Positions 5,632 to 33,585 of a stretch of DNA of 64,000 bases are shown one piece after another. The DNA lies in contig CAZCBE010000002.1 of NCBI GenBank assembly GCA_964496695.1, forward strand, positions 61,861-125,860, in the 5' to 3' direction. This DNA is from an uncultured Klebsiella sp. (GTDB taxonomy: Bacteria; Verrucomicrobiota; Verrucomicrobiia; Limisphaerales; SXTU01). Each line of letters begins with the position of its first letter. The first letter of the stretch is position 1. A program made the translations under genes and the position numbers. The notes below the pieces were generated by a model that saw nothing but the letters and a program-made list of their open reading frames with translations, did not search any database and had not been told where the DNA came from.

Positions 5632-6486
5632 ATGACCACGAACTCCGATGACGCCGCGCGTCGCGCCTACTGGGCCGAGCAGATGGAGCTGGGCTACGAG
5701 CTGGTCCAGCGCACGCTGCCCTTCGAGGTCCGCGAGTGCGGCGAGGGCTTCGCCTCCCTGCCCGATGCGGCCGCCGCAGCCGGCATCGAGATGCAGTTCT
5801 CCCAGTCCAAGATTGCCGGGGGTCTCGACCGCGTGTTCTTCATGCGCGAGCGCCTGGTCCGCGACGTGATGGCCGTGGGCCGGGCCATGAACGAGCGAGG
5901 CTGGGTTTTGAAGATCGAGGACGCCTACCGCTCGCTGGAGATGCAGGGCCAGCTCGTGCGCAAACCCGAGGTCTTCGACGCCGTGCTGCGCAAGTGCATC
6001 TGGGAAAATGGCGGCGTCATGCCGCCGGTCGAGTTCGTCGCCCGCCGCGCGCTCGTCATGGTCGCCAACGTCCCGAAGATTGGCACCCACATGTCCGGCT
6101 CGGCGATTGACGTGTCGGTCTTCCGTCGTGACGACGGTTCCGAGGTCTGGCGTGGCAACGCCTATTTGGAAATGAGCGAACGCACGCCGATGCGCTCACC
6201 GTTCATCGCGCCGGAGGACTTGCAGAACCGGCTCGAGATCACCGCGATGCTGGAGGCGCAGGGCTTCATCCATTTTCCGTTCGAGTTCTGGCATTTCAAC
6301 CAAGGCGACGCACTGGGTCACCTCGTCCGGGGCCTGCCCGCGCCCGCCCGCTACGGTGCGGTTCATTGGGATGCGAAGTCCAACCGCGTGACGCCGTGCG
6401 AAAATCCGCTCACGCCACTGAACCCGCTGGACGCCTTCGAGCGCGAAATCACGGCTGCCATGCGACGCGCTGAGGCGCAACGGTAA
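5632..6486 (+). CDS. M15 family zinc peptidase, VanX/DdpX-like (D-Ala-D-Ala dipeptidase fold)
   Basis: 284 aa. GTHMSGSAIDVSVF (H-x6-D zinc ligands) and FEFWHF (E-x-x-H) match the VanX-type motif order. Confidence 0.6.
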   Translation: MTTNSDDAARRAYWAEQMELGYELVQRTLPFEVRECGEGFASLPDAAAAAGIEMQFSQSKIAGGLDRVFFMRERLVRDVMAVGRAMNERGWVLKIEDAYRSLEMQGQLVRKPEVFDAVLRKCIWENGGVMPPVEFVARRALVMVANVPKIGTHMSGSAIDVSVFRRDDGSEVWRGNAYLEMSERTPMRSPFIAPEDLQNRLEITAMLEAQGFIHFPFEFWHFNQGDALGHLVRGLPAPARYGAVHWDAKSNRVTPCENPLTPLNPLDAFEREITAAMRRAEAQR

Positions 6487-8310: not shown

Positions 8311-8421
8311 GCGGAGCGCGGGTCTGTGACCCGCAGCTACGTCCGTCCTGCGGATGCGTGCAGATTCCCCCGTGACCTTCTGGCTAAGCTGCCTGCTGCG
8401 GGTCACAGACCCGCGCTCCGC
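8311..8421. repeat. perfect 27-nt inverted repeat with 57-nt spacer (GCGGAGCGCGGGTCTGTGACCCGCAGC)
   Basis: 8311-8337 is the exact reverse complement of 8395-8421. It lies in the divergent spacer between the esterase (-) and DUF1080 (+) genes. It is related to the GGAGCGCCGGTCTCCGACCCGGCG family seen at 26169, 26335, 28588 and 28638. Confidence 0.9.
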
Positions 8422-24078: not shown

Positions 24079-24080
24079 GC

Positions 24081-24232
24081 GCGTGGTGGCAGGCATCCTG
24101 CCTGCCGTAGAGGGCGCGCGTCCCGCCGCCCGGATGCAGGCAACGGAGTTCGTAGCGGCAGTTGCGCAAGTTGCCCGAGTCCGCCGGGCGGGACGCCCGG
24201 CTCTACGGCAGGCGGGACGCCTGCCGCCACGC
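24081..24232. repeat. 152-bp imperfect long palindrome built from GC-rich GGA-loop hairpins
   Basis: The 32-nt arms 24081-24112 (GCGTGGTGGCAGGCATCCTGCCTGCCGTAGAG) and 24201-24232 match 29/32 as reverse complements. Inner units CCGGGCGGGACGCCCGG and GGCAGGCGGGACGCCTGCC are themselves hairpins. Confidence 0.85.
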
Positions 24233-24296
24233 GCCACGAGCGGGCTTGAGTTGCCGACGGCACCTGTGAGTTAATCGGGAAAACGAAAGACACTTT

Positions 24297-26169: not shown

Positions 26170-26360
26170 CGGAGCGGCGGGCTCCGACCCGGCGTTAAGA
26201 ATCAGCCTGCGCCGGACGATGCGGCAGTCTGTGGGGCGCGCGGCGTTCACGCCGCTTCAACGTGCGGAGCGGTATGGTGTTCTTATGCCCTGCTGCGTTC
26301 GGACGATGAAGCGGCATAAATGCCGCGGTCCTCACGCCGGGTCGGAGACCGGCGCTCCAC
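26169..26360. repeat. inverted pair of the GGAGCGCCGGTCTCCGACCCGGCG repeat family bracketing a convergent intergenic region
   Basis: 26169-26194 (GCGGAGCGGCGGGCTCCGACCCGGCG) and 26335-26360 (CGCCGGGTCGGAGACCGGCGCTCCAC) match 23/26 as reverse complements. The small hairpin GCGGCAtaaaTGCCGC (26311-26326) lies inside. Confidence 0.85.
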
Positions 26361-26366
26361 CGAAAG

Positions 26367-27743
26367 TCACTTCGCCGCTGACACCGCTTCGTCCGTCGCC
26401 TCGCTCAACACGGCGAGGGACTCTTCCAGCGCCTCGCGCGGGAGGGTCAGGGGCGGGGCGATCTTCACGGTCTGGCCCCAGGCACCCACGGGTGCGAAGA
26501 GCAGCAGCCCCTTCCACATGCACCGCTCGATGATCGCGTGCGCGAGGTCGTGGTCCGGCTGCTTCGTGCCGGGCTTCACGGTCTGCATGCCCGCGACCAG
26601 GCCGCGCGCGGTCACGTGGCCGATGACCTGCGGGTGCTTGGCCTGGATCGCTTTCAGGCCGTCCAGCAGCACCGGCTCCAGCGCGGCGGCGTTTTCCGTG
26701 AGCTTCTCGCGAATGATCTTCCGCACGCTGGCCAGCGCGGCGGCGACACACACCGGGTTGCCCGTGTGCGTGCTGGTCATCGAGCCGGGCGGGAACTGGT
26801 CCATGATGGCCTCGCGGCCGATGACCGCCGAGATGGGCAGCGAGCTGCTGATACCCTTGCCGCAGCAGATCACGTCGGGCGAGACGCCGTAGTGCTCGAA
26901 CGCCCAAAACTTGCCCGTGCGCCCGAAGCCCGCCTGCACCTCGTCGAAGGTCAGCACGATCTGGTGCTGGTCGCACCACTCGCGCAGCCGGCGCACGAAC
27001 TCCACCGGCGCGAAGTCCGGCCCCACGCCCTGATAGCTCTCCATGATGACGCCGGCGACGTTCTCCGGCTGGAGGCCGCGCGCGGCGACCGACTTGAGGA
27101 ACGATTCGAAGCTCGTGTCCTGCTGCCAGTAGCCATCTGGGAACGGCGCGGTGATGATTGCGGGGTCCTCGTTCACGATCCAATTCTTCTGCCCCGCCAT
27201 GCCGCCGGCCTGCTGCGAGCCCAGCGTGCGTCCGTGAAAGCCGCGTTCCCAGCCGATGATGCCAATCTTCTTGTTGCCGCCGACCTTGATGCCGTGGGCG
27301 CGGCTGAGCTTGATGGCGCACTCGGTGGCCTCCGAGCCGGTGGTGAGCAGGAAGACCTTCTTCAAGCCCTCCGGCGCGAGCGCGGCCAGCTCGCCCGCCA
27401 GCTCGGCGCGTTCCTCGCTGGGGAAGACGTAATTGTGCAGCAGCCCGCTGTTCACCTGGTCGAGGATGGCCCGCTTGACCTCCGGCGCGCAGTGGCCGGC
27501 GTTGGTCACCAGCACACCGCTGGACCAGTCCAGCCAGCGGTTGCCGTATTTGTCATACACAAAGATGTCCTGCGCGTGGTCCCACACGATGGGCGGCTGG
27601 CCGCGCATGGACTGCGGCTCGAACTGCCGGAGCCGCTCCAGCGTCGGCACCGAGTCCGGGTGGGGGATCGGCGTGACGATGCGGCGATACTTGGTTTCGA
27701 CGTGCGGAACGGTCCGCGGAGTGATGCTGAATTCTTTGCCCAT
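26367..27743 (-). CDS. class-III PLP-dependent aminotransferase (acetylornithine/GABA aminotransferase family)
   Basis: Start at ATG 27743 (MGKEFSITPRTVPHVETKYRRIVTPIP...). ...VTNAGHCAPEV..., LLTTGSEATECAIKL, FDEVQAGFGRTGKFWAFEH, CCGKGISS (the Lys of the PLP Schiff base). Confidence 0.9.
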   Translation of the reverse strand: MGKEFSITPRTVPHVETKYRRIVTPIPHPDSVPTLERLRQFEPQSMRGQPPIVWDHAQDIFVYDKYGNRWLDWSSGVLVTNAGHCAPEVKRAILDQVNSGLLHNYVFPSEERAELAGELAALAPEGLKKVFLLTTGSEATECAIKLSRAHGIKVGGNKKIGIIGWERGFHGRTLGSQQAGGMAGQKNWIVNEDPAIITAPFPDGYWQQDTSFESFLKSVAARGLQPENVAGVIMESYQGVGPDFAPVEFVRRLREWCDQHQIVLTFDEVQAGFGRTGKFWAFEHYGVSPDVICCGKGISSSLPISAVIGREAIMDQFPPGSMTSTHTGNPVCVAAALASVRKIIREKLTENAAALEPVLLDGLKAIQAKHPQVIGHVTARGLVAGMQTVKPGTKQPDHDLAHAIIERCMWKGLLLFAPVGAWGQTVKIAPPLTLPREALEESLAVLSEATDEAVSAAK

Positions 27744-28031
27744 AGTGCGGGTGACGATGCGGCCGGGACGGGTGAAGGTGCTACGCCGAAAGTCCCGCGT
27801 TCCGATGCTTTTGTGACGTGCCACGGGAGAACTGAAATTCTTTTGGCCACCAAGAGGCGCAAGATGGCGCAAGATGGAAATCCAGCCGGATGCCGGGGTG
27901 AAAACCTGATGGCAACCACGGAATACCCGGAATACGCGGAAGCGGAAAGAGACAGCGTCGGACCGGTCTTCATGCTTGAGGACATGGTGTGTCGGTTGGC
28001 AAAGGGGGAACACCGTCCGGCGCTTCCGTGT

Positions 28032-28193
28032 GGGCGCATCTTGACACTTCCCCCGAAGCTGAGCCGGCGCGGACGCCGGCGACACGGCCCGCGGGACGCG
28101 GGCGCTACGTAGCGCCGGCCTCCGGCCGGCCGTGTCGCAAGCGTCCTCGCTTGCCCGGTGGGGCGAGGTCGGGGGCAGTGTCAAGATGCGCCC
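28032..28193. mobile_element. 162-bp MITE-like element: 25-nt terminal inverted repeats plus a 9-bp direct flanking duplication
   Basis: Left TIR 28032-28056 GGGCGCATCTTGACACTTCCCCCGA. The right TIR 28169-28193 is its reverse complement at 24/25. CTTCCGTGT abuts both ends (28023-28031 and 28194-28202). No ORF inside. Confidence 0.7.
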
Positions 28194-28331
28194 CTTCCGT
28201 GTGTTCCGCGTATTCCGTGGTTCTCAATCGCTGGTTTTGGGCTGGACTGGTGGCGGACCGGAGGGTCCGCCGCACGGGTGCGCCGCTCAACCTGGCTCAT
28301 AGCCGATAGACCTTTGCCACGCTTTGACATG

Positions 28332-28342
28332 GACTATGAGTC
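28332..28342 (+). promoter_or_regulatory. C-box-like operator GACTatgAGTC abutting the C-gene ATG
   Basis: Perfect GACT-N3-AGTC palindrome ending one base before ATG 28343. TTGACA lies at 28324-28329 and a degenerate palindrome GCTcatAGC at 28295-28303. Confidence 0.5.
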
Positions 28343-28570
28343 ATGTTGAAACGTGACAAGGTTCTCTCCGCCCTCGGGCTGAACGTCCGCAGGAATCGCG
28401 AGGCCCGCGAGTTCACCCAGGAGAAGCTGTCGGAGAAATCGGGCCTCGATCCCACCTACATCAGCGACATTGAGCGGGGCCGGCGCAACCCCGGCATCAA
28501 AAACGTCGCCAAGCTGGCCAAGGCGCTGGGGCTCACCACGGCGGAACTCTGCCAAGGGGTGGACGCGTGA
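28343..28570 (+). CDS. XRE-family HTH protein resembling R-M controller (C) proteins
   Basis: 75 aa. ...EFTQEKLSEKSGLDPTYISDIERGRRNPGIKNVAKLAKALGL... is close in pattern to C.Esp1396I/C.PvuII-type regulators. Confidence 0.75.
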   Translation: MLKRDKVLSALGLNVRRNREAREFTQEKLSEKSGLDPTYISDIERGRRNPGIKNVAKLAKALGLTTAELCQGVDA

Positions 28571-28588
28571 AGGGGAAAGCCAAGTCCG

Positions 28589-28662
28589 CGGAGCGCCGGT
28601 CTCCGACCCGGCGTGTGGATGTTCGGCCCCCGGAACTCGCCGGGTCGGAGACCGGCGCTCCG
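28589..28662. repeat. perfect 25-nt inverted repeat (CGGAGCGCCGGTCTCCGACCCGGCG) with 24-nt loop, just downstream of the C gene
   Basis: 28589-28613 is the exact reverse complement of 28638-28662. Same family as 26169/26335. It may act as a terminator hairpin, although no U-tract follows. Confidence 0.85.
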
Positions 28663-28741
28663 GCCCTCCGCGAGGAGCCCGTGCCCTACCGCACCGCCTC
28701 CGAATCTTCTCCCTCTCCGCTCCGGGGAGGGCCGGGGAGAG

Positions 28742-28828
28742 GTGGTGGCGCTCCGTTTCATTGACCTCTTCTGCGGCATCGGCGGCTTCCGCCTCGCCTT
28801 CGAGCACGCGGGTGCGCACTGCGTCTTC
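28742..28828 (+). pseudogene. dcm: remnant of a C5-cytosine DNA methyltransferase (N-terminus and motif I only)
   Basis: GTG 28742 onward encodes VVALRFIDLFCGIGGFRLAFEHAGAHCVF, containing motif I DLFxGxGG. Recognisable MTase sequence ends before the convergent HNH gene stop at 28860. Confidence 0.7.
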
Positions 28829-28859
28829 CTTGGCGATTGGGCGGACTCAGCCATCAGGT

Positions 28860-29657
28860 CTACAGCTTGCGGAAAATCTTGGCGCGATGCTCTGAAAGGA
28901 ATGCCAAATCAGGTAACGCCGCATCATCGGGCAGCCACAACGGCTGGCCAGCATAAGCGCCAAAGTTCTCGGAGACTGAACGCTGAGAAAGTTCGAACTT
29001 CAACTTCGGCGAGAGCAGAAGTCGCAGTGTGTCGTCGAAAGCAATCAAGCCACGGTCAAATGCCGCATCGTGCAAGCGTGACAGGGACAAACCGTTGCGG
29101 ACATTAAGCCGCTCGGTGGGATGAGCACCCCAAGGTAAAATGTGCGATGCCACCAACAGCTCGCGAATTGCCAGCCCAGTTATGCCGCATCGTCCGCCGA
29201 AGTTGTTCAGCACCGCATCGCGAAAATACTCCTGTCCACGGCGCAGCTTTACGCTCGCTGTTGTTTCTGTAGGCCCAATCGGTGGGCGTTTGCAGACGCG
29301 GACACCTTCCTTCGGTAACACTTCAAGGTCGCTGCTTTCATCCACGTCGAACAGGTTTCGCAGAGCTTCCTCGCTCACTGGCACCGCCTCATTGAGGTTT
29401 TGGTGGAACTCGTTCCACACCGTCCGGTCGAGGGCACTTGCACCCTCAAGCCCTTTGATGCCGCGCAGCTTCAATGCAGGGTCCAGCGAAGCGAAGTTGC
29501 ACAGCTTCATGGCGACGCTGTTGGGACCACGTTCGAGCTTGTCTGCCAACGCCATAATCGCTGGGTGTCGCGCGTGAAGCTGACCGAAGGTCAGCTTGTG
29601 GTAGAGATTCAAGGTGACGAGCAATTCACCGTGGGTCCATCGTTTTCCGGCTGCCAT
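28860..29657 (-). CDS. HNH endonuclease (HNH_2 / COG3440-type predicted restriction endonuclease)
   Basis: Start taken at ATG 29657 (MAAGKRWTHGELLVTLNLY...). N-terminal ...GPNSVAMKLCNFASLDP... C-terminal RCGITGLAIRELLVASHILPW...NGLSLSRLHDAAFDRGLIAFDD is the H-N-H core. Confidence 0.8.
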   Translation of the reverse strand: MAAGKRWTHGELLVTLNLYHKLTFGQLHARHPAIMALADKLERGPNSVAMKLCNFASLDPALKLRGIKGLEGASALDRTVWNEFHQNLNEAVPVSEEALRNLFDVDESSDLEVLPKEGVRVCKRPPIGPTETTASVKLRRGQEYFRDAVLNNFGGRCGITGLAIRELLVASHILPWGAHPTERLNVRNGLSLSRLHDAAFDRGLIAFDDTLRLLLSPKLKFELSQRSVSENFGAYAGQPLWLPDDAALPDLAFLSEHRAKIFRKL

Positions 29658-29746
29658 GTTTTGACGGTGCCAGGTTCGCAGTGATGAGCGAAGGAGGAAA
29701 GTGCTTGCCGCCGAAAGCAAACCTGGCCAGGTAGTTCTGCCGAGCT

Positions 29747-30415
29747 ATGTCTAACGAATCTGAACTCGGCACTGAACCACTCGACCCCGCCGCTGTCTTC
29801 GCCTGTGCCCTTTCGCTGCGCGAGGCGTGCCTGAAGCGCGCGAAAACAAACCCGCAACTGAACTTGAGCGAGAACTACAACGGCATGGATCAGTTTTTGC
29901 GCGAGCTGATGCGAGTCGCCAATCTGTTCGAGGCATGGGCTTGTGCCCATGTTGAGTTCGAGGAGATGAGCGAGGTTTGGCCGTCTCTGATGGAGGACAA
30001 ATTCGGCGACGCTTGCCTGGAGTCCACGCTTCCGAGCGCGCTGGCTCAGTTCGATGATTCCGACTGCTTGCGGGTAGCACTCCGGTTGCGATTGCCCATA
30101 CAAGCAGACGATAAGCTTCGCGTGCCCATTGATGTTCGCGCACCCAATCCGATTGGGGGCTCGGATTTCCAAGCGTTTCGGATTCAAACCGTGCGCAATG
30201 AGCTTGATGAAGGCAATGCAGTTGCGTTCACCACCGATGATGACCCGTTCGATGAGGAGTTTGGGCCACCGTATTTCGCACTGTATGGCGTGGGCTATGA
30301 TGGATTGTCAGAACACATCGCCGACCGAAACACTTATTCAGATGCCTTGAGCCTTGCTCAGAAGCTTGCGCCCGGTGTGGCACTTCCACTCAAACCGATT
30401 TGTTTCACCACATGA
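29747..30415 (+). CDS. hypothetical acidic protein, no recognisable family
   Basis: 222-aa ORF divergent from the HNH gene (89-bp spacer). Rich in D/E (DDDPFDEEF, FDDSDC). More protein-like than the overlapping antisense ORF 29609-30187. Confidence 0.5.
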   Translation: MSNESELGTEPLDPAAVFACALSLREACLKRAKTNPQLNLSENYNGMDQFLRELMRVANLFEAWACAHVEFEEMSEVWPSLMEDKFGDACLESTLPSALAQFDDSDCLRVALRLRLPIQADDKLRVPIDVRAPNPIGGSDFQAFRIQTVRNELDEGNAVAFTTDDDPFDEEFGPPYFALYGVGYDGLSEHIADRNTYSDALSLAQKLAPGVALPLKPICFTT

Positions 30416-30552
30416 GCGACCGACGGTCTGTTTTGCAGTTGAAGGTTCAACGTTGAGCGTTGGAGGTTGGAAGTTCACCGTTCCTCACCACGCCTGACGT
30501 CTTCACCAAGGCCAAGGCTGTTGAGGCGCGTGGCCGGCCGGGACACCCCGCG

Positions 30553-30885
30553 TCATTTCTTGCCGGACTTGTGGCTGCGCGGTTGGTTGCCCCGCTCGGT
30601 CGTGCGACTCGTTGCGCGGGGAGCCGAGCGACGCGGTTCCTCGCGCCGGATCTCAGCGCGGCTGGGCTTGGCTTGGGAGACGGGGGCGGAGCTTCTGGTG
30701 GTGGCTGGTTGCTTAGCTTTCACGCCCTGACCATATCCCTCCTTCTTAAGCGGCACAACCGCCCGTTTGGCAAAGGTTGGAAGGAGCGGGAGAAGAACGG
30801 CGGTGATTTCGAGCCAATCACGACCGTGATGTTCGTCTCCCTCGTTCGGAAATTTCAGCTTCCACAGCGTCGCGTAAATGCTCAT
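30553..30885 (-). CDS. hypothetical small protein with basic, low-complexity C-terminus
   Basis: 110-aa ORF (MSIYATLWKLKFPNEGDEHHGRDWLEITA...). It sits between two copies of the vsr 5' end. It may be a gene fragment. Confidence 0.3.
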   Translation of the reverse strand: MSIYATLWKLKFPNEGDEHHGRDWLEITAVLLPLLPTFAKRAVVPLKKEGYGQGVKAKQPATTRSSAPVSQAKPSRAEIRREEPRRSAPRATSRTTERGNQPRSHKSGKK

Positions 30886-30946
30886 GGATTATGCGTAGCG
30901 TTTCGCCGTTGTTTCGACGAGCGGGCAACTTGCCAACCATCACGCG

Positions 30947-31522
30947 ATGCCAGATGTCTTCACCAAGGCCAAACGGTCGGCGGTCATGGCGCGCATCCGG
31001 TCGCGGGGGAACCAGGCGACGGAGCTGGTGCTGGTGCGGGTGTTCCGCGCGCATGGGATCACGGGGTGGAGGAGGCATCTGAAGTTGAGAGTGGCGGAGT
31101 TGAGAGTTGAGCGTCGGAAGCGGGTGCGTTCGTCCGCGCTCGGCGGCTCTCAACCCTCAACTTTCAACCCTCAACTCACCGTTCGTCCTGACTTCGTGTT
31201 TCCCAAGCTGCGGGTGGCGGTGTTTGTGGACGGGTGCTTCTGGCATGCGTGTCCGCAGCACGCGACGCAGCCCAAGGGGAATGCGGCGTTCTGGCGCGCG
31301 AAGCTGGCGCGGAATCAGGCGCGGGACCGGCTGGTGACGCGGACGTTGCGGCGGGCGGGGTGGCGGGTGCTGCGGCTCTGGGAGCATGAGCTGGCCCGGA
31401 AGCGTGCGGCGCGGTTGGTGGCGCGGTTGCGGCGGGTGTTGGCGGGTGTGCCTGCGAAACCCGCACAGACAGCGACACCTCACCCCAACCCCTCTCCCCG
31501 GTCGAGGCGGAGAGGGGCCTGA
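30947..31522 (+). CDS. vsr: very-short-patch repair endonuclease (Vsr) carrying an in-frame repeat insertion and a repeat-derived tail
   Basis: MPDVFTKAKRSAVMARIRSRGNQATE... then RPDFVFPKLRVAVFVDGCFWHACP...FWRAKLARNQARDR...GWRVLRLWEHEL matches E. coli Vsr block by block (...SKNMRAI...PDFVV...IFTHGCFWH...FW..K...N..RD...GWRVL.VWE). Confidence 0.8.
   Translation: MPDVFTKAKRSAVMARIRSRGNQATELVLVRVFRAHGITGWRRHLKLRVAELRVERRKRVRSSALGGSQPSTFNPQLTVRPDFVFPKLRVAVFVDGCFWHACPQHATQPKGNAAFWRAKLARNQARDRLVTRTLRRAGWRVLRLWEHELARKRAARLVARLRRVLAGVPAKPAQTATPHPNPSPRSRRRGA
31083..31183. repeat. about 96-nt GTTGAGAG/CTCAACCC-type palindromic repeat inside vsr
   Basis: Encodes RVAELRVERRKRVRSSALGGSQPSTFNPQLTV between the Vsr N-terminal helix and the PDFVF catalytic block. 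The arms GAGTTGAGAGTTGAG / CTCAACCCTCAACT(T/C) are imperfect complements. A related unit lies at 30440-30480. Confidence 0.7.
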
Positions 31523-31612
31523 GATGGGCCCGCGAAACACGCCAAAAGACGCGAATGAGGTGAAGAGAACGCGGAGTTTGGAACTCGGAATGCGGAATGA
31601 AATAGGACCGCG

Positions 31613-31859
31613 CGAATGGGGAGGGCACCGCAGAGGCGGGACGGGCGCAGAGGTGTTGCGGAATGCGGAATGTGACGCCTCCGCATGAGCCTGTGCCGGC
31701 GACTTGCAGTCGCCGTCCGTGGGCCACAGCAGGACGAACCAGCTTCAAGCTGTCCACCCGCAACGCGGCGGCTGCAAGCCGCCGGCACGGGGACCGGGCG
31801 AACGGGAGGGCACCGCAGAGGCGGGTCGGGCGCAGAGGAGTTGCGGAATGTGACGCCTC
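31613..31859. repeat. two direct copies of a ~61-69-bp repeat (GGGAGGGCACCGCAGAGGCGGG.CGGGCGCAGAGG.GTTGCGGAATGTGACGCCTC)
   Basis: Copy 1 is 31613-31681 (with an extra GCGGAAT). Copy 2 is 31799-31859. Identity is about 90%. They are flanked by CTCTCCCC...GGGGAGAG-type hairpins at 31473-31519 and 31852-31897. Confidence 0.85.
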
Positions 31860-31943
31860 TCCCCAACCCCTCTCCCCGAGCGAGGCGCAGAGGGGGCAAT
31901 CGCACGGTTACAGCGGGCGTTGGGGCGTTTCGTTCATCCATGT

Positions 31944-32636
31944 TTATCGGTGTGCATCCGTAGTTGGATCGGCTGGGGAAATTCGGTTCAGGTCGGCGAG
32001 GGCGGTGTGGGCGGGGGCGGCGAGCCAGCGCTCGAAGGCGGCTTTGCGCGCGGGCCAGTCGGTGTCGAGCATCGCGAACCAGGTGGTGTCGCGGTTCTGG
32101 TTTTTCACGACCATGTGCTGGCGGAAGCAGCCTTCGTATTGAAAGCCCAGGCGCAACGCCGCGGCGCGGCTGCGGGCGTTTTCCGCGTTGCACTTCCACT
32201 CGACGCGCCGGTAGCCGAGGTCGTCGAAGAGGTGGCGCAGCAGGAGGAAGACGGACTCGGTGTTGACGGGCGTGCGTTGTGCGGCGAGGCCATACCAGAT
32301 GTGGCCGAGTTCGGCGGTGCCGTGCGCCGGCGTGATGCGCAGGATGGAGATCATGCCGATGCGTTCGCCAGTGGGGTGGCGGCGCACGGTGAAGAAGAGC
32401 GGGTCGGTGCTGGCCTGCGCGGTGTGGAGCCAGGCACGGAAGGCGTCGAGATCCGCATAGGGGCCGTGGGTGAGGTAGCGCCAGATTTCCTGCGCGGCGA
32501 GGGGCGTGTGGCTGGCGTGATAGAGTTCGGCGGCGTCGTCGTCCGCGTGGAGCGGGGTGAGGCGGACGTGGCGGCCGGCGAGGGGTTGGTGCGCGGGCAG
32601 GGGCCAAGTGGCGGGGAAGGGCAGGGCGATGCTCAT
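31944..32636 (-). CDS. GNAT family N-acetyltransferase (RimJ/RimL-like, Acetyltransf_3)
   Basis: Start at ATG 32636 (MSIALPFPATWPLPAHQPLAGRHVRLTPL...). ...ERIGMISILRITPAHGTAELGHIWYG...RRVEWKCNAENARSRAAALRLGFQYEG. Confidence 0.8.
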   Translation of the reverse strand: MSIALPFPATWPLPAHQPLAGRHVRLTPLHADDDAAELYHASHTPLAAQEIWRYLTHGPYADLDAFRAWLHTAQASTDPLFFTVRRHPTGERIGMISILRITPAHGTAELGHIWYGLAAQRTPVNTESVFLLLRHLFDDLGYRRVEWKCNAENARSRAAALRLGFQYEGCFRQHMVVKNQNRDTTWFAMLDTDWPARKAAFERWLAAPAHTALADLNRISPADPTTDAHR

Positions 32637-32885
32637 GGGCGAGGAGTTCAGAGGAAACGCGGGTGGATGGCTACGCGAAATATCCCTGCTTTCAATGCTT
32701 TCGTGCGTGCGGGCCGGTGGAGCAGCAGAACTGGCAATGGGGATTGAACCCGAACGCCGAAGTGGAACAGGGTAGCACAAGCCACCGGCCTGTGCCGTCC
32801 GGCCACTGGCCGGACGGAACGGCGAGACGGCCACCTATTAAATTTGATGCTCCGCTGTTTTCGGTGGACAGCGGAGGCCGGCAGG

Positions 32886-33101: not shown

Positions 33102-33229
33102 TTCCACCCGCCATTCCACTGAAAACAGCGGGGAGCCTTAAAGGTTCCTCGCTGTTTTCGGTGGAAGGAGGCTGCGCGGTGGTTGGCTGCGCCAAGCTCA
33201 CCGGAGACGCGCGCCGGGCGTGCATTAGT

Positions 33230-33429
33230 CCCGGAGGGCCGTCCGACAATAGCCCAGCGATTCATCGCTGGGTTGAGCCGGGGCCGCTGGCCAGTCCCGC
33301 AGGGACGAAAGAGCTTCTCCACGCGGGATGCCCACGAAGAGCCATTCTGCCGTCCCTCCGGGACTCCCCATCATTGCCGCCACAGCTTCCAGCGATGAAT
33401 CGCTGGGCTATTCTCTGTCGCCCTCCGGG
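33230..33429. repeat. two inverted copies of a repeat centred on the hairpin CCCAGCGAttcaTCGCTGGG
   Basis: Hairpins at 33253-33272 and 33389-33407. The flanks CCCGGAGGGC..GACA..ATAGCCCAGCGA are shared in opposite orientation. Confidence 0.8.
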
Positions 33430-33585
33430 CTGAACCCAAGGCCATGCCATCGGAAACTGCGGAGCCCCGGGATTTTTCTGACCCCATGTTTCTGACTTCC
33501 GTGCTTATGAGGCATGCCTCCGCACTACGGAGGTTTGGATCGCCAAGGAACTGCGTCGCATGAATAAAAAAGTCCAGAAAAAATG

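Follow-up and report, generated by a model that had tools for sequence, protein, structure and literature searches.

The ISKra4 group of IS elements is clade p-MULT 4 of the prokaryotic Mutator-like transposases described by Guerillot et al. in 2014 (PMC3942029). The IRs of its members measure 18-39 bp and have a terminal C, their direct repeats are 8 or 9 bp long, and p-MULT duplications in general resemble those of MULEs (PMC3942029). Some ISKra4-group elements, like ISLre2 and TnGBS, insert 13-17 bp upstream of sigmaA promoters; transposases of this promoter-targeting subset carry a signature that lies between domains N1 and N2 and includes a conserved Asp (PMC3942029).

The DNA analysed here is a stretch of 64 kb, referred to in full as the window. 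Its positions 28032-28193 are very probably a non-autonomous MITE of a Verrucomicrobiota family, mobilised by an IS of the ISKra4 group with a 9-bp staggered cut and with targeting to promoter-like boxes. This is an ordinary kind of element from a previously undescribed family, and Verrucomicrobiota are not among the phyla in the 2014 survey (PMC3942029). The family is like the ISKra4 group in many respects – a single-ORF IS of about 1.4 kb with NF033572 as its best match, near-perfect IRs in the 18-39-bp range with a terminal C, 8-9-bp duplications, a fixed distance upstream of -35-like boxes of the sigma-70 type, and no set direction of insertion where the two IRs are nearly identical. Unlike the named members, it has a transposase just 23-36% identical to theirs and below the curated cut-off. 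Unlike the published group, it has 27 bp rather than 13-17 bp between the IR end and the start of the -35 box, and it consists mainly of short non-autonomous derivatives, which are not mentioned in PMC3942029. The searched literature contained no MITEs of ISKra4 or of this family, and a literature search with the TIR motif and the 9-mer array motif described below gave no match for either.

TnGBS and ISLre2 (p-MULT 3) also use a DDE transposase of the Mutator-like type, duplicate 8-9 bp and insert upstream of the -35 box of sigmaA promoters at a fixed distance. They belong to a different clade, their distance is 15-17 bp and their insertion is oriented; unlike a MITE, these elements extend up to conjugative elements of tens of kilobases. 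REP/BIME sequences are, like the element here, short, GC-rich, intergenic, hairpin-forming and multi-copy. However, they are imperfect palindromes 20-40 bp long, lack the combination of TIR and duplication, and are linked to the RAYT Y1 enzyme, while this element has 162 bp, 25-nt TIRs, a 9-bp duplication and a putative DDE partner. Eukaryotic MULE-derived MITEs are short, TIR-bounded, non-autonomous elements of the Mutator superfamily with duplications of about 9 bp, many of them with much longer TIRs. The likeness to these is one of superfamily-level kinship only.

Anatomy of the element and its locus

The MITE is found in a 600-bp region between an aminotransferase gene and an XRE gene. The features of the locus, in window coordinates and with a strand where they have one, are:

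26367-27743, minus strand: class-III aminotransferase gene (PF00202, E 9e-91), on the opposite side of the intergenic region
27819-31943: variable island of about 4.1 kb hosting the arrays and the MITE, from comparison with orthologous loci
27914-27945, minus strand: left array arm, reverse complement TTCCGCGTATTCCGGGTATTCCGTGGTT, found by inverted-repeat search as one of an outward-facing pair
28023-28031: left target-site duplication CTTCCGTGT, touching the left TIR; the window has just one other copy
28032-28193: MITE, 162 bp, non-coding, a near-perfect long hairpin, with a full-length relative at L038:1615-1776
28032-28056, plus strand: left TIR GGGCGCATCTTGACACTTCCCCCGA, whose 23-25 nt also form the termini of the 1.37-kb ISs of L063, L059 and L021
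28067-28150: internal palindrome centred at 28108/28109, with 42-nt arms that are 83% complementary
28169-28193, minus strand: right TIR, reverse complement GGGCGCATCTTGACACTGCCCCCGA, equal to the right end of the L063 IS at 25/25 positions
28194-28202: right target-site duplication CTTCCGTGT, also the first unit of the right triple 9-mer array, abutting the right TIR
28195-28222, plus strand: right array arm TTCCGTGTGTTCCGCGTATTCCGTGGTT, intact after the insertion and carrying the 26-nt motif
28221-28226, plus strand: TTCTCA, a -35-like hexamer at flank position 28 facing the XRE gene, 4/6 to TTGACA
28343-28570, plus strand: XRE-family HTH gene of 75 aa (HTH_3, E 2.7e-17), downstream of the right end of the MITE

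An earlier note on this DNA had described 25-nt TIRs, a 9-bp duplication around them, and a partly self-complementary interior without an ORF, and all of these are seen directly. The left TIR is matched at 24 of 25 positions by the reverse complement of 28169-28193. Even at three mismatches, the 64 kb contain no TIR match beyond these two, and 100 dinucleotide-preserving shuffles of the window contained none. The nonamer CTTCCGTGT occurs exactly twice in the window, identical at 9/9 positions, with one copy touching each TIR. Both copies are followed by a G, and the boundary of the element is therefore ambiguous by one base – a 10-bp repeat with a TIR starting at GGCGC is also possible. The 3' end of the element reads ...GCGCCC-3'.

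The arms of the interior palindrome are 28067-28108 and 28109-28150. The whole 162-nt element folds into one long hairpin of about -130 kcal/mol (z about -10) on either strand; covariation in the hairpin, assessed by eye, was uninformative with just two full-length copies. The element is small (162 bp) and has no coding capacity. The ORFs that run across it were judged to be artefacts of high GC content. Its interior is not conserved among members of the family.

Three other candidate features in and around the element were considered. Each TIR contains a TTGACA that is directed inward and lacks a suitably spaced -10, and this was therefore rejected as an outward promoter. A tandem of GCGCAAGATG at 27849-27870 has a weak resemblance to the TIR. 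A search for degenerate outer TIRs around the arrays, which would make a larger composite like L014:5839-6462, gave nothing convincing.

The surrounding island, beside the XRE/C gene, retains 35 residues of a cytosine-5 methylase and also carries genes for an HNH_2 endonuclease and a hypothetical protein, as well as vsr. The XRE gene is probably the controller (C) protein gene of the adjoining restriction-modification remnant. In two orthologous loci, L112 and L120, the gene immediately before the aminotransferase gene is a GNAT gene, while the homologue in the window (31944-32834, minus strand) is 4.1 kb away. The 80 orthologous aminotransferase loci found in metagenomes have only the 75-nt leader at 27744-27818 in common with the window, and the whole island is absent from them. 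From these orthologues without intervening DNA, and the distance to the GNAT gene, 27819-31943 is recognised as a variable island. An empty site was sought with the exact 22-nt junction pattern, which had no match in metagenome contigs; the orthologous loci lack the whole island.

One Logan contig of 1755 bp (L111, from SRR14271336) is identical to the window and ends inside the MITE, at window position 28090. It is the only contig with an exact protein match, and no exact record of the XRE protein was found. A break inside the MITE is typical of assemblies at repeats and hairpins.

Copies in other genomes and a partner IS

The core of the TIR was used to scan one genome per species, and all of the loci compared here come from species other than that of the window. 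The earlier note had proposed searching the full genome for copies of the TIR and of the whole element; both recur in the other genomes scanned here. Among the matches listed, the TIR core is present in more than 110 stretches, nearly all of them titled as Verrucomicrobiota, Verrucomicrobiales or Limisphaerales MAGs; the TIR is thus multi-copy across many genomes. It had 0 matches in viral contigs, and within the 64-kb window it matches just the two ends of the element, which is single-copy there. The matches listed form 60 TIR pairs, of which 55 are short elements of 117-273 bp. The most common length among them is 135 bp (23 elements), and seven have 162-163 bp.

Duplications flank many of these pairs. 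Counting the window copy, 18 pairs among the matches listed have perfect 9-bp duplications (17 others), 12 further pairs match at 8/9 positions, and four have an exact 8-bp duplication. The duplicated sequence is different in every copy, and a 9/9 match by chance would be expected at about 4e-6 per pair.

Most copies have only the terminal 23-31 nt in common with the element of the window. The palindromic interior is specific to a subfamily, common only to the window element and L038 among the matches listed. The L038 copy, at 1615-1776, is 91% identical over all 162 nt, in reversed orientation, with unrelated flanks and an 8/9 duplication. The presence of this near-identical copy in a different context means that insertion of one short sequence has taken place at more than one site. 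The same MITE family includes a TIR-bounded composite of 624 bp (L014:5839-6462).

Three ISs of 1374-1377 bp with the same TIR were identified among the matches listed (L063:89-1465, L059:876-2252 and L021:4509-5882), each with an intact ORF of 408 aa. A transposase gene bounded by the TIRs of the MITE, which the earlier note had suggested looking for, is therefore present in three loci. Identity among the ISs is just 66-78% for DNA and 55-78% for protein, but their terminal 23 nt are unchanged. Two other, longer TIR pairs (2.1-2.2 kb, in L009 and L107) were considered as IS candidates and rejected; they are ends of separate elements with host genes between them.

The 408-aa protein matches the NCBIfam model NF033572, "ISKra4 family transposase", with E 3.1e-50 over profile positions 59-411 of 422; it scores 171.5 bits, where the curated cut-off is 205. 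The match to the ISLre2 model NF033529 is weak (E 1.6e-13), the ISH6 model is also weak, and a Pfam search of the protein gave no match. In a tblastn search against plasmids, the best relatives were cyanobacterial and named ISKra4 family transposase by PGAP, with identities of 23-36% (28-29% in the best matches). Conserved blocks LLDGWQ, DGAPWIW and GAVES, containing a D...D...E series, were seen by eye in the transposases. The 25-nt IR lies in the range of 18-39 bp for the ISKra4 group (p-MULT 4) and has the terminal C, and the direct repeats are 8-9 bp; a duplication of 9 bp, which was to be compared with known IS families, fits this group (PMC3942029). The window itself has no transposase of this kind, as the earlier note had stated: tblastn with the partner transposase found none in the 64 kb at E<=1.

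The right TIR of the window element is identical to the right end of the L063 IS (25/25). Both ends of the MITE are of the IS right-end type, CCCCCGA, while the left end of the IS is of the type CCCCCAT. Beyond the termini, the interior of the MITE has no similarity to the IS.

The designation of the element as a MITE is well founded on these comparisons – the TIR is multi-copy, the 9-bp duplications are unrelated to one another, the L038 copy lies elsewhere, and a transposase gene is bounded by the same TIRs. The generic features of MITEs are all present, as the elements have TIRs and a duplication of fixed length, are small and non-coding, occur in many copies at unrelated sites, and have an autonomous partner with the same TIRs. 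The family is now tied to ISKra4 / Mutator-like transposases. A single MITE is unremarkable in itself, and the association with a box at a fixed distance, described in the next section, is the most useful result.

Two other origins for the 162 bp were weighed. The element could be a structured element specific to this locus (a regulatory hairpin, a terminator or attenuator, or a small RNA gene), with the nonamers being units of the adjoining array and without any transposition. It folds very stably on both strands and is single-copy in the window; yet its termini are also those of more than 50 short elements and three transposase-bearing ISs, with unrelated 9-bp duplications among the matches listed, and a 91% identical copy has unrelated flanks. 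Rfam covariance models found nothing in the region at the gathering threshold (a permissive scan gave just noise, E 0.25-0.59), and no terminator-like T tract was found at the element. The 9-bp period of the array is also the length of the repeat, so that the two copies, if left standing, would make the array a regular one of four units, and the earlier note had named flanks that are tandem-repeat units as grounds against a MITE. In this one copy, the duplication could in principle be two native units, as the array period equals the duplication length. However, a true duplication is the better reading because the family makes 8-9-bp duplications and the two copies of the nonamer are identical, while neighbouring units differ at 2-3 positions, and because three regular units, not four, make up every other arm, both in viral contigs and on the left side here. 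A locus-specific structure is largely refuted by the family copies, the unrelated duplications and the L038 copy, and we regard it as extremely improbable.

It is nearly as improbable that the element is a full-length IS that decayed in situ by internal deletion, and not part of a separately amplifying MITE lineage. This is a route by which MITEs are thought to arise, and the TIRs are IS termini, the right one at 25/25. But a decayed IS would have one left and one right end where this element has two of the right-end type, and its interior is dissimilar to the IS beyond the termini. The 162-bp sequence recurs at 91% identity at another locus in another genome, and so moved as a short element, and size classes of 135 bp and 162-163 bp also recur. 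A mobile MITE of the family remains the preferred identity of 28032-28193.

The TTGACA-like box at flank position 28

Because promoter targeting has been published for elements of the ISKra4 group, the sequences that read outward from every TIR end in the matches listed were pooled. There were 170 such flanks, 168 of them independent by clustering. A TTG starts at flank position 28 in 32 of the 168, compared with 1.5% per position elsewhere (maximum 9), with a binomial P of 1.9e-25. Hexamers within two mismatches of TTGACA are found at this position in 40 of the 168, with 4.7 expected. In the subset with TTG, the next bases favour A/C-C-A. An AT-rich, -10-like block stands at +24 to +29, which leaves a spacer of about 18 nt; the background GC content is 63%. 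Many single flanks look like typical promoters, among them TTGCCA-N17-TATACT in L095 and TTGACA-N16-TATCTT in L045.

The box is found on one side of the element only. Both flanks are readable in 55 TIR pairs among the matches listed (including the three ISs and the window copy), and the box is one-sided in 30, two-sided in none and absent in 25. In all three ISs it lies beyond the right end, and in L038 the hexamer at position 28 is TTGACG, on the flank matching the right end of the window element. Insertion in this family puts one element end 27 bp upstream of a -35-type box, 18 bp past the 9-bp duplication. This rule resembles the promoter targeting of ISKra4, ISLre2 and TnGBS, at a different distance (27 vs 13-17 bp, though the counting conventions may differ).

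Judging by their composition, the TTGACA-like boxes would be active promoters. It is also conceivable, though unlikely, that a TTG at position 28 reflects a preference of the transposase for sequence or shape, in which case the MITE would be real and the promoter targeting a misreading. The boxes are read as promoters from their sequence, and a test of promoter function using outward ORF starts gave 71% in both classes, with no discrimination in high-GC DNA; yet the composition is TTGACA-like and is followed about 18 nt on by an AT-rich block in DNA of 63% GC, and the signal is one-sided, never on both flanks. The distance of 27 bp differs from the published 13-17 bp, but promoter seeking is documented for relatives within this transposase clade (PMC3942029). 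The window copy, with a weak hexamer and no -10, fits a preference for sequence or shape. Targeting of promoters remains the reading we favour for the family.

The 27-bp register is about one helical turn beyond the published 13-17 bp.

The window copy has the same orientation relative to position 28 as L038 and the ISs. Its hexamer, TTCTCA, is a weak example of the box, and 2.8% of background positions have a hexamer as near to TTGACA. TTCTCA lacks a convincing -10 after it, and a simple promoter scan of 27600-28500 found nothing. TTCTCA may be one of the active promoter boxes, and the insertion may affect expression of the XRE gene or the aminotransferase gene; the chance that the hexamer is a working promoter seems somewhat below even.

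These results suggest the following mechanism. A 1.37-kb IS of the ISKra4 group (p-MULT 4, prokaryotic Mutator-like) would supply a putative DDE transposase in trans, which would recognise the 23-25-nt termini GGGCGCATCTTGACACTGCCCCC(GA). A site would be chosen with one end of the element 27 bp upstream of a -35-type TTGACA box, and a 9-bp staggered cut would produce the duplication, here CTTCCGTGT. The window element faces the XRE/C gene with the end that equals the IS right end, and TTCTCA stands there at position 28.

If the boxes are real promoters, copies of the family would map promoter positions and the promoter consensus in Limisphaerales-type Verrucomicrobiota, where hardly any promoters have been mapped, and would be natural markers of sigma-70-type promoters in an almost uncultured phylum. 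The family would also offer a second spacing register for studying how transposases read promoter-bound complexes.

Triple 9-mer arrays at the insertion site

The insertion site led to a conserved 26-nt motif, a triple 9-mer array that is common in viral contigs. Each array arm consists of three tandem 9-mers, TTCCGTGTG TTCCGCGTA TTCCGTGG, and the ...CGTGG ends point outward. In the window, the motif is present at this locus only. The duplicated target had been placed by the earlier note in a second repeat family, mirrored on the other side of the element, and this is borne out: 27914-27945 and 28191-28222 are 88% complementary over 32 nt, and the 26-nt array motif was found in 54 stretches of viral contigs. 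The further statement that one repeat had landed inside another holds as a description, but nothing shows that the second repeat is mobile.

The cut site of the MITE covers the first unit of the right array, and the array fills exactly the 27-bp interval before TTCTCA. The cut would have been made at the upstream edge of the array, with the 26 nt between the element end and TTCTCA being the array. The right array is intact after the insertion because the duplication restores its first unit. The allele before insertion would have read ...CGGCG CTTCCGTGT GTTCCGCG..., with a single nonamer. The two inverted partners are now 171 bp of hairpin-forming DNA further apart.

The viral contigs were scanned with a degenerate form of the 26-nt motif. 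The contigs with the 54 stretches have 44-70% GC, and there are up to six copies per locus. Most of the viral arrays are solo; eight are outward-facing pairs of 103-138 bp, like the pair reconstructed for the window, at 138 bp. In L199, two array pairs occupy consecutive intergenic gaps before genes that, read from the sequence, are putative terminase genes. No protein family is common to the array-bearing viral loci (the most widespread is in 10 of the 54), array direction has no clear bias relative to downstream genes in these loci, and there was no sign of duplications. In L198 and L203 an array pair is present at the same site, with the arrays conserved and the spacer replaced, which points to selection acting on the arrays. 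That the array is a protein-binding site is a guess.

A wider reading, which we offer only tentatively, is that the element represents an undescribed Mutator-like (ISKra4-type) lineage of Verrucomicrobiota that seeks promoters with a 27-bp register, mainly amplified as MITEs, and that it was inserted at the upstream edge of an undescribed, widely conserved protein-binding or regulatory array (TTCCGTGTG x3) of phage and island DNA associated with Verrucomicrobiota.

A variant of the array with TTTCG was also seen inside the 624-bp composite of L014 and beside a TIR in L017; the arms point inward there.

Triple 9-mer arrays in viral contigs and beside the MITE family

The 9-mer arrays that lie on either side of the MITE in the window (27914-27945 and 28195-28222) share a conserved motif of 26 nt, consisting of three tandem 9-mers (TTYCGTGTN TTYCGTGTR TTYCGTGG). 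The motif was also found in 54 stretches of viral contigs (L192-L245) with GC contents of 44-70%, where it lies within intergenic gaps. The viral arrays occur singly or as inverted pairs of 103-138 bp facing outward. At one orthologous site the spacer was replaced while the arrays were conserved. A match to the 26-nt motif was not found in the literature. Examples of the viral arrays are:

L199, 3701-3816 and 4404-4515
L198, 7699-7804
L203, 3011-3148

Within the 1.18 Mb of genome loci, arrays were found elsewhere only in L014 and L017, two loci of the MAG JANYDN01, and there they adjoin the same MITE family as in the window. L014 has a 624-bp composite (5839-6462) whose ends are the TIRs of the window MITE family and whose flanks match 8/9; it contains a pair of arrays, of a TTTCG variant, facing inward. 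A second, shorter copy is found at L017:1-395.

The island and its borders

The arrays and the MITE are within an island of about 4.1 kb (27819-31943) that is missing from the closest orthologous loci. The island looks like a decayed restriction-modification unit and contains:

28343-28570, XRE/C-protein gene
within 28613-29107, cytosine-5 methylase remnant of 35 residues
28860-29720, minus strand, HNH_2 endonuclease
29747-30415, hypothetical gene
30947-31522, vsr

On the aminotransferase side, the island is bordered by a 75-nt leader upstream of that gene (27744-27818, CGTCACAAAAGCAYCGGAAGG...). The leader has 75-79% DNA identity across six related metagenome loci, while the sequence farther upstream differs; it had no Rfam match and may be a conserved leader with a regulatory role. 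An inverted repeat, TCAACCTGGCTCATAGCCGAT / ATGGACTATGAGTCATGTTGA (28287-28349), overlaps the XRE start codon, with TTGCCA and TTGACA hexamers immediately upstream. Within this repeat, GACTATGAGTC somewhat resembles a controller-protein operator of the C-box type.

The vsr frame has an in-frame palindromic insert (31080-31180) made of GTTGAGAG / CTCAACCC repeats, and this insert divides the Vsr Pfam match in two. A repeat of the initial 24 nt of vsr, GCCAGATGTCTTCACCAAGGCCAA, is found 457 bp upstream (30492-30515, in the region 30440-30520). Several short direct repeats are found at the island end opposite the MITE:

31474-31517 and 31852-31895, CCCCTCTCCCCG...GGAGAGGGG hairpin, two copies
31619-31665 and 31804-31850, 47-nt repeat, 96% identity
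31586, 31659 and 31843, CGGAATG 7-mer tandems

Elsewhere in the window, CGGAAT clusters occur only in the 9-mer arrays.

Other palindromic elements in the window

Two matches to the Acido-Lenti-1 RNA motif lie directly upstream of tRNA-Thr, at 33227-33272 (minus strand, 44.8 bits) and 33388-33431 (plus strand, 37.5 bits). They are separated by 117 nt and make up an inverted repeat of 35 nt. The pair (33227-33431) has no evident flanking duplication and resembles the two termini of a small palindromic element more than it does a set of separate sRNA genes. In an intergenic gap, 24079-24234 has a TIR-like pair with 34-nt arms (GCGCGTGGTGGCAGGCATCCTGCCTGCCGTAGAG, 91% complementary, spacing 88 nt) and is a candidate for a second MITE, of about 156 bp. 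Intergenic DNA also contains several inverted pairs from a family of REP-like hairpins, represented by CGGAGCGCCGGTCTCCGACCCGGCG and its variants:

26171-26200 and 26329-26358
28589-28616 and 28635-28662
8311-8337 and 8395-8421

The MITE interior at 28108-28135 is like this hairpin family in 23 of 28 positions.
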